Shown here piece by piece: positions 9,762 through 60,106 of a DNA stretch of 64,000 bases (the stretch's first letter is position 1; each line of letters begins with the position of its first letter). The stretch covers positions 21,324 to 85,323 of the forward strand of contig DATKJS010000009.1 of NCBI GenBank assembly GCA_035543515.1, given 5' to 3'. The stretch is from Terriglobales bacterium (lineage in GTDB: Bacteria; Acidobacteriota; Aminicenantia; Aminicenantales; Saccharicenantaceae). Both the position numbers and the translations under genes were made by a program. The notes under the pieces were generated by a model. That model did no database searches, had not been told where the DNA came from, and was given only the letters and a program-made list of their open reading frames with translations.

Positions 9762-10912
9762 TTCTTGACTCCGATCCAGACGATCTCCTCGTCGGCCCTA
9801 TCCTTGGCCAGGGCGTCCGCCGCGACCTCCTTGAACGACTCCGTGGTGATGTCGCGCCCGCCCAGCCCGGCGATGTAGCCGAAGAGCGGCGGCATGCCCG
9901 GCCGGCCGTAGACGGCGGACTTGACCTCCTGGTAGAAGATGCCGCCCGCGCCGTAGGAGCAGTTCCGGTCGACGACGGCCGCCTTCTTGGCCTTGGCGAG
10001 GACCTCGCGGACCCGGTCGAAGGGGAACGGCCGGAAGGCCTTGATGCGGACGTTCCCCGCCTTGACGCCGGAGCGGCGGAGCTCGTCCACTGCGACCCGG
10101 GCGGTGTAACCGGCCGTGCCCGAAGTGACGAACAGGAAATCGGCATCGTCCGACCGATAGGCGTCGATGAGGCCGAGGTCGCGCCCGAAGAGCCGGCCGT
10201 ACTCGCGGCCGGTCTCCTCGATGAGGGCCGGGGCCTTCTCCATGTCCTTCTCGAGCCGGTAGCGGAGCTCCATGTAGTGCTCCGACCCGGTCAGGCCGCC
10301 GAAGGCCCGAGGGTCGGCGGGGGTCAACCTGATGGCGGGCTTGAAGGGCGGCAGGTACTTGTCGACCAGGGCCTGGTCCGGGACGTCGACGACCTCGTAG
10401 GTGTGCGAGAGGGCGAAGGCGTCGAGGATGACCATGGCCGGGATCATCAGCGTCTCGGCGACCTTGAAGGCTTGGATGACCGTGTCCACGACCTCCTGGT
10501 TCGAGGCGCAGTAGAACTGCATCCAGCCCGTGTCGCGCTCGGACAGACTGTCGTTCTGGTCGGTCCAGATCGACCAGCCCGGGGCCATGGACCGGTTAAT
10601 GTTGCCCATGACGACGGGGTGGCGCCCGCCGGCGGCCCAGTGGAGCATCTCGTGCATGAGGGCCAGGCCCTGGGCCGAGGTCGCGGTGAAGGTCCGCGCC
10701 CCGGCGACCGAGGCGCCGATGCAGGAGGCCATGGCCGAGTGCTCGGACTCGACCTTGATGAACTGGGCGTCGAGGGTCCCGTCGGCGCACATCTCCGAGA
10801 GGAGCTCGACGACCTGGGTCTGCGGCGTGATGGGGTAGGCGGAGATGACCTGGGCCCGGGAGAGCATGGCGCCGTAGGACAGCGCGTGGTTGCCCATGAT
10901 GACTTTTTTCAT
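9758..10912 (-). CDS. 2-oxoacid:ferredoxin oxidoreductase, alpha subunit (PorA/VorB-like)
   Basis: MKKVIMGNHALSYGAMLSRAQVISAYPITPQT is the typical alpha-subunit N-terminus. Start set to ATG 10912, which overlaps the delta stop (ATGA); the longer ORF to 11068 overlaps the delta gene. Confidence 0.85.
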   Translation of the reverse strand: MKKVIMGNHALSYGAMLSRAQVISAYPITPQTQVVELLSEMCADGTLDAQFIKVESEHSAMASCIGASVAGARTFTATSAQGLALMHEMLHWAAGGRHPVVMGNINRSMAPGWSIWTDQNDSLSERDTGWMQFYCASNQEVVDTVIQAFKVAETLMIPAMVILDAFALSHTYEVVDVPDQALVDKYLPPFKPAIRLTPADPRAFGGLTGSEHYMELRYRLEKDMEKAPALIEETGREYGRLFGRDLGLIDAYRSDDADFLFVTSGTAGYTARVAVDELRRSGVKAGNVRIKAFRPFPFDRVREVLAKAKKAAVVDRNCSYGAGGIFYQEVKSAVYGRPGMPPLFGYIAGLGGRDITTESFKEVAADALAKDRADEEIVWIGVKK

Positions 10913-34845: not shown

Positions 34846-35675
34846 ATCCCACGGCCCGGAGCGCGGGCCTCGTCGTGACGCGGCTCAGCGCCTTCCTCCG
34901 CCGCGACCTCCGCGAAGCCCTGAGCTACAAGTTCACCTTCGTCTCTTCCCTTGCCGGCATCTTCTTCTCTACGGCGACGTTCTTCTTCGTGGCCAAGCTC
35001 GTCCCGCCCGGCGCCGCTTCGCTCGCCGCGTACGGGGGCAACTACTTCTCCTTCGCCGTCGTCGGCGTCGCTTTTTCGAGCCTCCTCGGTATCTTCCAGG
35101 CCGGGCTGCCCTCCGTCATCCGGAACGCCCAGGTCTCCGGAACGCTCGAGGCCGTGCTGGCGACGCCTGCGTCCGTCCCGACCGTCCTCGTCGGTTCGTC
35201 CCTCTACTCGTTCGTTTTCCAGACCTTCCGGACGATGCTCCACCTGGCCGTGGCCGTCCTTGTTTTCGGCATGGTCCTCGGCCCCGTGAACTGGGCCGGC
35301 GTCGCCGCCGTCTTCGCCCTGACGGCCCTGGCCTTCCTTTCCGTGGGCATGCTTTCGGCGAGCTTCATCCTCGTCTACAAGCTCGGGAACCCGTTCGGCT
35401 GGCTGCTCTTGGGCATCTCGGGCCTGCTCGGCGGCGTGGTGTTTCCCGTGACCCTCCTCCCGCCGTGGCTCCGCTGGGCGTCGTCGCTCCTGCCGGTGAC
35501 CTATGCCCTCGACGGCATGCGCCGCAGCCTCCTCGCCCCGACCGGGTTCGCCGCGCTCGTCCCCGACATCGTCGCCCTGGCGGCCTTCGACGTCGTCCTG
35601 TTGCCGCTCGGCCTCGTTCTCTTCCGAGTCGCGGTGCGCAAGGCCAAGCGGGACGGCACGCTCTCACACTACTGA
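34842..35675 (+). CDS. ABC-2 type transporter permease
   Basis: Six hydrophobic spans, 277 aa. ATGA overlap with the ATPase gene. Confidence 0.8.
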   Translation: MNPTARSAGLVVTRLSAFLRRDLREALSYKFTFVSSLAGIFFSTATFFFVAKLVPPGAASLAAYGGNYFSFAVVGVAFSSLLGIFQAGLPSVIRNAQVSGTLEAVLATPASVPTVLVGSSLYSFVFQTFRTMLHLAVAVLVFGMVLGPVNWAGVAAVFALTALAFLSVGMLSASFILVYKLGNPFGWLLLGISGLLGGVVFPVTLLPPWLRWASSLLPVTYALDGMRRSLLAPTGFAALVPDIVALAAFDVVLLPLGLVLFRVAVRKAKRDGTLSHY

Positions 35676-35870
35676 CCGGCGCGGCTCTCCCCACGTTCTT
35701 GATCAAGGAAAGAATCCTACCTATCGGCGGAGGGGTCCTGTCCGTGTGCCGAAGCCCTCGGGGATGGCCTCCCCTCCGGAGTGCGGCTTGCGCTAAGCCG
35801 CACATGACGTTCCGGCCGTTCCCCTTCGGCTCTCGTCCGATGCCGGACGGGTGGCCGGTGCCAGTCGCGG

Positions 35871-35899
35871 CCGAACGGAGGGAGCACCCCGAGCTCGAC
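35871..35899 (+). repeat. 29-nt motif S (CCGAACGGAGGGAGCACCCCGAGCTCGAC), copy 1
   Basis: 26/29 identical to 60078-60106 in the same orientation. Confidence 0.6.
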
Positions 35900-35924
35900 T
35901 TCCCCATGACGGGGACGTGCGGCG

Positions 35925-36039
35925 GGTGGCGCCGAGGCCGTGCGAAAGACCCCGTTTGGAAGGGGGCCCGTCGGCCTTGCGACGGGGGAAACGGGACAGG
36001 TTCCCGGGGCCGGGGGATAAGGACGGCCTTGGCGCCACC
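35925..36039 (-). repeat. 115-nt core repeat, copy A (inverted relative to copy B)
   Basis: The reverse complement matches 59762-59876 at 108/115 positions by hand alignment. It is closed by GGTGGCGCC/GGCGCCACC and contains three internal hairpins. Confidence 0.9.
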
Positions 36040-36130
36040 GCACGGGGACGCACACGGACAGGACCCCGCCGCCGATAGATCCGCGTTTGGCCTGACCGGT
36101 CGAATCTGCTAACATGAGGGGCGGAGACAG

Positions 36131-36709
36131 ATGTTGGGCAAGAGAACGCTGACCATCGCGGCGGCCGGGCTCCTGGCCGTCTCCGGCTTCGCGGCGCCGC
36201 CGACGCTCGCGCCGGAGGTCAAGGAGCGGGCCCTCAAGGTCATCGCCCTGCTCGAGGGGCTCGAGAAGGACCGGGCCCGGCACCCGGAGCGTCCCGGCGG
36301 CAGCGGCGCCGTCGCCGAGGCCGACGTTAACGCCTGGATCGCCTACCGCATCGCCACGGAAGGGGAGTCCTACGTCCGGTCGTGCGAGCTCCGCCTCCTC
36401 GACGGCGACCGGGCCGAGGGCAAGCTCGTTATCGACCTCAGCCGGACCCCTGCCTCGACCGTGCTTCCGGCGCAGGCGGAGGTCTTCTTCGCCGCCTCGG
36501 CCGAGACGCGCGACGGCAAGATCCGCATCATCATGGAGCGGCTCTTCCTCGGCACCCAGAGCCTGCCGCCGTCCTTCCTCGACACGGTCATCGGCATCGT
36601 CGCCGGCCTCGAGGGGCAGCCGGCGCAGAGCCTGCGCGACTGGTATCCGCTGCCCTACGGTATCCGGCGGCTGGAATCGCGTGCCGGCCGCCTCATCTGC
36701 CATTATTAA
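36131..36709 (+). CDS. Hypothetical secreted protein
   Basis: Signal peptide (MLGKRTLTIAAAGLLAVSGFA). No recognisable motif. Confidence 0.45.
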   Translation: MLGKRTLTIAAAGLLAVSGFAAPPTLAPEVKERALKVIALLEGLEKDRARHPERPGGSGAVAEADVNAWIAYRIATEGESYVRSCELRLLDGDRAEGKLVIDLSRTPASTVLPAQAEVFFAASAETRDGKIRIIMERLFLGTQSLPPSFLDTVIGIVAGLEGQPAQSLRDWYPLPYGIRRLESRAGRLICHY

Positions 36710-59713: not shown

Positions 59714-59761
59714 GGTTCGCTCCCTGCCGGACGGGTCCCGTCCGCGCCGGTCCACGGTCAT

Positions 59762-59876
59762 GGTGGCGCCAAGGCCGTCCTTATCCCCCGGCCCCGGGAA
59801 CCTGTCCCGGTTCCCCCGTCGCAAGGTTGACGGGCCCCCCTCCAAACGGGGGCTTTCGGACGGCCCCGGCGCCACC
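59762..59876 (+). repeat. 115-nt core repeat, copy B
   Basis: 108/115 identical to the reverse complement of 35925-36039. Predicted fold: P1 GGUGGCGCC/GGCGCCACC, P2 GGCCGUCC/GGACGGCC, and hairpins GGGAACC-N6-GGUUCCC, CCCGUCG-N6-UGACGGG (with a G-U pair) and CCCCC-N8-GGGGG. Confidence 0.9.
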
Positions 59877-60077
59877 TGCGCCTGCCTCCGCCCGTCCTCA
59901 AGGGAGTCGGCGGGACTGGCACCGGCCGCTTGCCCGCTTCAGCTAAATGAAACGGAGAGCGTAGGGGCGGTTCCCGAAGGGAGGCATGGGCAGGCCGAGC
60001 GGGCACGGATGGGCATCGAAGGTCCCAGAGCGAGGCCTGTCCTTGAGCGGGTTGGACTCGCCGGGGCCAACCAGCGT

Positions 60078-60106
60078 CCGAACGCAGGGAACACCCCGAG
60101 CTCGAT
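60078..60106 (+). repeat. 29-nt motif S, copy 2 (CCGAACGCAGGGAACACCCCGAGCTCGAT)
   Basis: 26/29 identical to 35871-35899 in the same orientation, 85 nt upstream of ATG 60191. Confidence 0.6.

Follow-up and report, generated by a model that had tools for sequence, protein, structure and literature searches.

In the stretch of DNA analysed here (64,000 nucleotides, hereafter the window), the spacer between an ABC-2 permease gene, which ends at 35675, and the following gene, which starts at 36131, is 455 nt long and contains a 358-bp segment (element A, 35721-36078) closed by inverted arms. A first-pass annotation of this locus had offered three readings of the segment: a large structured non-coding RNA, a MITE, or a BIME/REP-like mosaic. 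The question is which of these describes element A, and what its conserved part may be.

The features from which these readings had been drawn were found again in the sequence, including the spacer and both gene boundaries. The two arms (35721-35749 and 36050-36078, 29 nt each and separated by 300 nt) are complementary at 28 of 29 positions (97%), and the arm sequence occurs at two sites only in the 64-kb window, against 0.00 expected from 100 shuffles. All four hairpins named in the first-pass annotation are present, namely GGGGA-TGGCC-TCCCC (35761-35775), GTGCGGCTT-gcgct-AAGCCGCAC (35781-35803), CGTCCG-atgc-CGGACG (35835-35850) and TCCCC-atgac-GGGGA (35901-35915), as is the closed 115-nt core (35925-36039), which is bounded by a 17-nt inverted repeat (35925-35941 / 36023-36039). 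The term "hyper-structured" was also justified: the plus strand of 35715-36085 has a predicted minimum free energy of -235.5 kcal/mol, where dinucleotide shuffles give -189.5 +/- 6.0 (z = -7.6), and the minus strand gives z = -6.1. The downstream gene encodes a 192-aa protein without Pfam domains and is followed by rsmD. As had been reported, no transposase, RAYT or reverse transcriptase gene lies near element A, whose neighbours encode an ABC transporter, RsmD, L31, RF1, PrmC and similar housekeeping functions. A TTGGCC-17 nt-TAACAT block at 36087-36115, outside element A, is conserved in every orthologue of the downstream gene and looks like a putative promoter of that gene.

The core of element A is repeated. 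In the window, a second copy (copy B, 59762-59876, minus strand) is 94% identical to it and carries a T-like tail at about 59720-59761; it is antisense to both of its neighbours, the genes for a TPM-domain protein (end 59713) and a prolyl oligopeptidase (start 60191). An exact 24-mer of the core was found in 41 stretches of species-representative genomes, nearly all of them in three Candidatus Aminicenantes MAGs, JBBISK (20, about half at contig ends), CAWDTC (17) and CAWCND (4), with taxonomy as named in the sequence records. A degenerate pattern, which purposely excluded this type 1 at one loop base, detected a diverged core subtype with a different loop base (type 2) in more than 120 metagenome stretches among the matches listed. 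Copy numbers are lower bounds, since the scans relied on exact patterns and the type-2 figure is an "at least" count. A covariance model built from 35 core copies matched the sense strand 51, 64 and 33 times in three locus sets. BLASTN of element A against plasmid and phage collections returned no match, and a scan of viral contigs with the core pattern gave 0 matches.

Element A was then cut into pieces, each of which was searched against comparison loci (L-numbers) from related genomes and metagenomes. Every interior piece recurred elsewhere, be it the left arm, a module M, the 35851-35924 block, the core or the tail, and order and orientation varied, while the immediate flanks, 35676-35720 (45 nt) and 36079-36130 (52 nt), were unique among the loci searched. 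The left closing arm (T', 35721-35749, minus strand) is a reverse-oriented copy of a dispersed module of about 28 nt, T, which has the consensus GACGCACACGGACAGGACCCCTCCGACC with a small internal hairpin (CGGAC-AGGACCC-GTCCG) and gave 41 matches in type-1 loci. Module M (35748-35830, plus strand), which holds the first two of the hairpins listed above, recurs as a dispersed unit of about 80 nt whose ends, CCGAAG...CTTCGG, are inverted copies of each other. It matched 11 other loci (L038, twice, L020, L035, L029, L036, L009, L041, L033, L027, L002 and L039) with 26-52 nt aligned at 92-97% identity, the nearest core pointing either the same way or the opposite way. A 19-nt match of M at 10018-10036 of the window sits in a coding region and was set aside as chance.

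The next block (35831-35924, plus strand) comprises the hairpin at 35835-35850, a 14-mer (35853-35866), a 28-mer (35871-35898), the hairpin at 35901-35915 and a short core leader. The 14-mer is found again at 59914-59927 on the minus strand and, as part of a 16-nt stretch, in L024; the 28-mer is found again at 60078-60105 in plus orientation, inverted relative to core copy B, and, as part of a 34-nt stretch, in L012. The spacer of copy B shares both oligomers with element A, in another order and orientation relative to the core. The conserved core itself (35925-36039, plus strand, 115 nt) leads into a tail with the forward T module (36040-36078, plus strand), of which 36050-36078 is the right closing arm, and most type-1 copies have this tail after the core. 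Cover by more than 10 other copies runs to about 36070 and then falls to zero. The unit common to most copies is a short leader, the 115-nt core and a tail of about 35 nt, which is the T module.

The same modules are combined differently elsewhere. L029, from another MAG, has the T'-M-core-T order of element A without the 35831-35924 block, L036 is a compact T'-core-T version of about 220 nt, and other loci have the core and T with part of M only. Inverted T'/T pairs bracket cores in L029, L033 and L036, and minimal T'-T hairpins without a core also occur. Between paired repeat arms there are only about 60-370 nt, in no case with a gene. Because its modules recur separately, element A is a mosaic, in which two T modules account for the 29-bp terminal inverted repeat. 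Among the three readings first proposed, recurring modules, unique flanks and the layout of L029 all speak for a mosaic or MITE.

The consensus fold of the core is a 19-bp outer stem, P1 (35925-35943 / 36021-36039), closing hairpins P2, P3 and P4 and G-rich junctions. In element A, these parts are J1/2 GAAAGA (35944-35949), P2 CCCC-GTTTGGAA-GGGG (35950-35965), P3 CCCGTCG-GCCTTG-CGACGGG (35967-35986), P4 GGGA-CAGGT-TCCC (35993-36005, with the alternative pairing GGAAAC/GGTTCC) and the G-rich junction GGGGCCGGGGGATAA (36006-36020). Over 129 distinct copies, pairwise identity is 78-89% in the core interior and 52-53% in the P1 arms, and 36 core columns are at least 95% conserved. Pairing of P1 is kept nevertheless. 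In 64 type-2 copies, all 19 pairs have changes on both sides and 95.5% of the cells are paired, in a covariance-model alignment that is biased towards the structure of the model and nearly ungapped in P1; the observed values were reached in 0 of 500 shuffles, and sliding the partner by 1-3 columns lowered pairing to about 50%. Among the non-Watson-Crick cells of P1, G-U/U-G outnumber A-C/C-A by 66 to 19 in the type-2 set (p = 3e-7 in a binomial test that treats related copies as independent) and by 59 to 11 in the type-1 set. Relatedness among the copies makes the shuffle and binomial values look more significant than they are. G-U and A-C would be equally frequent in a double-stranded palindrome or under neutral decay; the excess of G-U therefore indicates that folding is important for a single strand, namely the strand that reads GG...GGGACNGGTTCCC...

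P3 has three covarying pairs and varies in length (17, 27 or 37 nt), tolerates inserts of more than 100 nt, and carries nested insertions in its loop; as its length steps are not multiples of 3, the core is non-coding. One base in the P2 loop and one in the P4 loop are A:U in 93 of 93 type-2 copies and U:A in 36 of 36 type-1 copies. This switch is consistent with a three-base loop-loop contact (UAG/CUG versus UUG/CAG), and it represents a single evolutionary event confounded with the search pattern, in which A at that position was excluded. The P2, P4 and junction helices are essentially invariant across copies and, because they never vary, are neither supported nor refuted by covariation. Alternative interior helices, between the 5' C-run and the 3' G-run and between GGGGAACC and GGTTCCCC, were dropped, the informative outliers (L115, L084, L060 and L078) being few and conflicting in direction, and a tRNA-like cloverleaf for the core was unsupported. 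An optional domain in L035 and L040 carries compensatory changes.

Outside P1, metagenome copies have a further inverted repeat that is specific to each subfamily, the largest subfamily having AT-rich arms, and from one lineage to another the core carries outer arms that are not related to each other. Core and outer arms together make up a hairpin of about 200 nt, the conserved core forming its apex. The core family is the real entity, a long hairpin in which the stems need only to pair and an asymmetric apical region of about 70 nt is nearly constant. The core strand also contains five G runs of at least 3, with a GC skew of +0.15 at 35850-36149.

The behaviour of the repeats across genomes resembles that of mobile sequences. 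Relatives keep the gene order Wzz, Wzy, NTP_transf_5, ABC ATPase, ABC-2 permease, spacer, a gene of about 190 aa, rsmD, L31 and RF1, so that the spacer between the permease and the 192-aa gene can be followed from genome to genome. It is 455 nt long with the full mosaic in the window and near-identical strains, and element A is conserved with few SNPs in the latter (L042-L046). In L051/L052 (72% protein identity) it is 174 nt long with a solo reversed T (T'), and in L053 (66% protein identity) it is 259 nt long with a diverged core on the opposite strand. In the JBBISK MAG (88% identity), the contig begins 167 nt upstream of the 192-aa gene, and this stretch has no core. Orthologous spacers that lack element A or hold an inverted, diverged core are further support for the mosaic or MITE reading.

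Similar variation was seen at other sites. L053 has an additional copy between rsmD and the next gene, missing from the other genomes, and other orthologous sites are filled in one genome and unfilled in another. Two intergenic sites are occupied in diverged genomes (L028/L152 and L120/L091), the core lying in opposite orientations in L120 and L091. In-situ compensatory evolution at the L028/L152 site was considered and dropped, since the arms of L152 belong to a dispersed subfamily and an independent insertion is equally likely there. Near-identical type-2 elements with sharp ends (TAATACGAACGC...GCGTTCGTATTA) and 12-nt perfect terminal repeats lie at three unrelated sites. In one derivative, deletion between two GGGCGGC direct repeats has removed the core, and short-read contigs repeatedly terminate inside the repeat. 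The core interior remains 78-89% identical between genomes whose syntenic proteins are merely 66-88% identical.

The repeat ends, CTA...TAG in element A and TA...TA in type 2, fall within the inverted repeat. No target-site duplication was readable in the filled/empty pairs L039/L006, L009/L169 and L053/L051, which are too diverged or contain other repeats. A CTAG target with TA duplication, as for IS630, was considered and could not be told apart from the repeat ends.

Gene context was scored with a crude GC3-based gene caller, so the calls are approximate. For the 37 copies with both neighbours called, 12 were co-directional in sense, 9 co-directional in antisense, 11 between convergent and 5 between divergent genes, and none of the 37 lay within a called gene; a looser count gave 11, 7, 10 and 1, respectively. 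By these neighbour counts, the copies are intergenic, unbiased in orientation and somewhat depleted between divergent genes. Pfam assigned 95 families among the 61 proteins flanking type-1 copies and 210 among the 148 flanking type-2 copies. No family, transposases included, recurred among these 209 proteins, and none of the most frequent families belonged to mobile elements. The first-pass annotation had regarded dozens of copies beside a RAYT or IS gene as the sign of an ordinary REP or MITE; dozens of copies were indeed found, and no RAYT or IS gene adjoins any of them. In a tblastn search of 1.29 Mb, a small and biased genome sample, RAYT and IS608 TnpA queries detected no Y1 enzyme. The weak match in L142 (E = 0.13) is a response-regulator gene, not a Y1 transposase. 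Scans for sigma-70 promoters and intrinsic terminators around both window copies found none.

Taken together, these features suggest, with a probability of roughly 0.6, that element A is a MITE/REPIN/BIME-like interspersed repeat, composite and non-coding, which forms hairpins and belongs to a new non-autonomous family. Element A is closed by two inverted T modules, with M, smaller shared blocks and the 115-nt core within, and the outer, lineage-specific extensions of P1 look like terminal inverted repeats. Copying would depend on a trans-acting enzyme whose gene lies at another place in the genome; the enzyme may act on a folded single strand of fixed polarity and use the constant apex as recognition platform. 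HUH/Y1 enzymes act on folded single-stranded DNA, and the likeliest candidate would be a HUH/Y1 tyrosine transposase of the RAYT/TIRYT type. New copies would settle in intergenic DNA, often in or beside older repeats, and so could give rise to mosaics such as element A, while inversion between arms would flip the core. Read-through transcripts of resident copies would carry a very stable hairpin, any effects on mRNA ends probably being secondary. Repetition, boundaries, modularity, maintained pairing, strand asymmetry, insertion polymorphism, nesting and the lack of gene association are direct observations; from the sequences compared, we infer both mobility via a single-stranded intermediate and the class of the enzyme. 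Pairing is strand-specific and placement does not depend on orientation, a combination that suggests an intermediate or product in single-stranded form, and not simply read-through mRNA.

As a counterpoint to a plain MITE, the payload of this family is constant and its terminal repeats are variable, the core being found with unrelated arms from lineage to lineage.

A tentative alternative, clearly less probable than the composite repeat, is that the 115-135-nt core represents a new class of functional structured RNA: P1 would close a four-way junction, possibly held by a contact between the P2 and P4 loops, and the RNA element would have been multiplied in the genome, the surrounding repeats being incidental to it. 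It could serve, for example, as a protein-binding or processing element or as a ribozyme, and might be made from its own start or within transcripts of its neighbours. An RNA reading survives for the core only, because a conserved interior, covarying stems and a strand-specific excess of G-U are atypical of a MITE. In its favour are the two-sided changes that keep pairing in all 19 pairs of P1 and in P3, the predominance of G-U over A-C on one strand alone and the 36 columns at least 95% conserved in 129 copies. The bases of the P2 and P4 loops switch together in 93 + 36 copies with no exception; against this, their covariation amounts to one event and is confounded with the search pattern. 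P3, which accepts changes of length and large structured inserts in the manner of a variable arm, and the compensatory domain of L035/L040 would also suit an RNA, whereas the invariance of the P2, P4 and junction helices leaves them without a covariation test. Moreover, when quasi-palindromic DNA is repaired by template switching, the result can look like stem covariation. Around the two window copies, neither a conserved promoter nor a conserved terminator was detected, the copies have no gene association, and their unbiased orientation (12 sense, 9 antisense) means that read-through cannot supply sense RNA in many of them. The repeats also resemble transposons in copy number, insertion polymorphism, nesting and the assembly breaks they cause. 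The conservation of the core across genomes with 66-88% protein identity nevertheless argues for a function of the core, which could be exerted as RNA.

Somewhat more speculatively, the core may belong to an undescribed class of structured nucleic acid and be the working component of a mobile system; joined to one set of outer arms or another, it would have spread among Aminicenantes and their relatives. Folded as a four-way junction of RNA or single-stranded DNA with a loop-loop contact, it could direct its own copying or processing, for example by acting as a ribozyme or by serving an enzyme as its specific substrate or guide.

It is improbable that the copies are chromosomal DNA sites, whether bound by a host protein or acting structurally or as G-quadruplexes or cruciforms, with a role in nucleoid organisation, supercoiling control or replication. 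E. coli BIMEs, which bind IHF and gyrase, offer a parallel, and such sites would fit the placement of every context-scored copy between predicted genes, the constant apex with arms that need only to pair, the five G runs of at least 3 and GC skew of +0.15 on the core strand, and the shared occupied sites of diverged genomes (L028/L152 and L120/L091). However, a double-stranded site gives no reason for the skew of G-U over A-C, orthologous sites are frequently empty, near-identical copies at unrelated sites indicate recent copying, and no candidate protein is known. Least probable, and not supported here, is the single large structured RNA gene of 358 nt with a 29-bp terminal helix, for which the exceptional predicted stability (z = -7.6), the closed layout and the conservation with few SNPs in L042-L046 would speak, but which is contradicted by modules found independently elsewhere in either orientation, by most copies sharing the core and its tail of about 35 nt alone, by relatives at 72% and 66% protein identity without the element at the orthologous site, by the lack of any Rfam, tRNA or tmRNA match and by the position of the promoter-like block of the downstream gene outside the element.

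Aminicenantes are abundant uncultured bacteria of sediments and soils, and their genomes are known almost only from MAGs. Dozens of copies of such a repeat explain why short-read assemblies of Aminicenantes are fragmented at these points, and the family provides a marker for strain-level rearrangement. Because it reverses the pattern of miniature transposons and adds strand-specific pairing, it is well suited to testing how hairpin repeats are copied, whether by HUH enzymes acting on single strands or in some other way, and also to asking whether RNA elements are to be found among 'junk' repeats. The roughly 130 aligned copies make the question directly testable.

The core matches no described RNA or transposon family among Rfam, phages, plasmids, viral contigs and the searched literature. 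Rfam 15 at gathering score gave no match in the window, in a type-2 element or in 14 related loci, in agreement with the earlier failure to recognise RNase P, tmRNA, 6S or SRP, and with element A in the permissive E-value mode only chance-level matches appeared (best E = 0.04, with a 27-nt frameshift-site model). ARAGORN found no tRNA or tmRNA in the sequence. The searched literature contained no link of Aminicenantes to REP elements or structured non-coding RNA and did not contain the core sequence, and a large MITE survey (PMC11602168) held nothing relevant. An integron attC site, expected in one-orientation cassette arrays beside an integrase, was rejected, as copies are single, in either orientation, among unrelated housekeeping genes. 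Omega RNA, bridge RNA and retron RNA were rejected as well, TnpB/IscB, the IS110 recombinase and reverse transcriptase being absent from the frequent flanking Pfam families. HEARO/omega RNA (IscB-TnpB), IS110 bridge RNA and retron RNA resemble the core in having a conserved fold with variable flanks in many copies. Unlike the core copies, they adjoin the gene of a partner protein, and the core has no Rfam match.

Like MITEs, the family is short and non-coding, with terminal inverted repeats, many dispersed copies and insertion polymorphism. ERIC, Correia/NEMIS, RUP and Nezha are similarly non-coding elements of 100-350 bp with terminal inverted repeats, present in dozens of intergenic, insertion-polymorphic copies that would form strong hairpins if transcribed; the type-2 ends, TA...TA, are a further likeness. 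In classical MITEs, however, the terminal repeats, as transposase sites, are kept while the interior drifts, whereas here the interior is constant and the arms vary yet pair, and no parent IS with matching ends is known for the core family.

The BIMEs, REP clusters and REPINs of proteobacteria are likewise scattered, extragenic palindromic units arranged in mosaics of alternating orientation with other short motifs, and T, M and the core also occur in both orientations and in several combinations. In those systems too, inverted pairs make long hairpins, one strand is apparently functional and most copies have no adjoining transposase. They differ in their unit, which is a palindrome of 20-40 nt, whereas the core is a multi-hairpin structure of 115-135 nt with a near-invariant, asymmetric interior. 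REP palindromes have a GTAG (or CGTC) tag at one end, and the RAYT gene is typically flanked by repeats. Here GTAG occurs only inside the P2 loop of type 2 (GTAGCGGA); type 1 has GTTT, and the T module has no tag.

Aminicenantes fall within Acidobacteriota in GTDB. Among Acidobacteria, the RAYT-like transposases known as TIRYTs stand out as a well-delimited group; long inverted repeats flank them, and some are accompanied by repeated inverted-repeat families (Di Nocera et al. 2013, PMC3733652). The repeats of TIRtrons and TIRYT-associated families are long, some of them self-complementary, and moderately abundant; they occur as singles, dimers and clusters and contain the motif GGGGWSAS (PMC3733652). 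This motif is absent from the T and core consensus, and no TIRYT gene was found in the 1.29 Mb examined. The tie to TIRYT repeats is offered as a literature lead: both are families of long inverted repeats from the same broad phylum, and the action of a Y1 enzyme on single strands would fit the strand asymmetry of the core.

The conserved 115-nt core of the hairpin-rich element lies in opposite orientations between genomes at two orthologous intergenic sites, as seen when the copy at L120:4027-4157 is compared with that at L091:903-1045, and when the window copy (35925-36039) is compared with that at L053:7773-7905. These opposite orientations fit either recombination between the element's own arms, the inverted repeats that close it, with inversion of the core, or repeated independent insertion into the same spacer.

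The core also differs in content among its copies. In two MAGs, a larger structured insert takes the place of the P2 hairpin (L035:3500-3700 and L040:6900-7010), with a length of about 190 nt in L035. The stems of this insert show compensatory changes between the two MAGs, GAGAAGCTCGGC...GCCGAGCTCCTC in one versus CAGAAGTACGGC...GCCGTACTTCTG in the other. The insert contains an additional repeated module, GGTCGCT...CGCTCCCTGCC, which is also nested inside the P3 loop of the L121 and L085 copies and is found upstream of the L088 core copy. As to composition, there are five runs of at least three G on the core strand between window positions 35950 and 36020 versus only three matching C runs, and the GC skew is +0.15 at 35850-36149 and negative in the flanking genes. 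A G-quadruplex on the folded strand of the core is conceivable.

Downstream of the element, a TTGGCC-17 nt-TAACAT block (window 36087-36115) is followed by GAGGGGCGGAG and by the ATG of the 192-aa gene at 36131. This arrangement is kept in all orthologous spacers (L050, L051 and L053), while the remainder of these spacers is divergent. The block and GAGGGGCGGAG probably serve the 192-aa gene as its promoter and RBS. With a score of 8/12, the block fell under the threshold of the sigma-70 consensus scan.

Short-read contigs very often end or start within the core or the surrounding mosaic, as in L003, L006, L007, L012, L013, L015 and L031 of MAG JBBISK and in L043-L049. Assemblies of these MAGs thus break repeatedly because of the repeat.

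The taxonomic labels conflict. The 192-aa protein (P0001, window 36131-36709) is found in nr under a 'Terriglobales bacterium' MAG, whereas genomes with the same repeat and synteny carry the label Candidatus Aminicenantes. A 315-kb contig with one clear copy of the core (L040) is assigned to 'uncultured Eubacteriales' by its label. An exact 24-nt core match also occurs in a 'Candidatus Zipacnadia' MAG (L032:956-979, locus GC 60%); its surroundings show no further similarity to the core, and it could be a chance match or a fragment. Among known RNAs, Acido-1 RNA gave a weak, sub-threshold match at window 36254-36314, within the 192-aa coding region (20.2 bits, E = 0.51; gathering score 50), most likely a chance similarity in GC-rich sequence.
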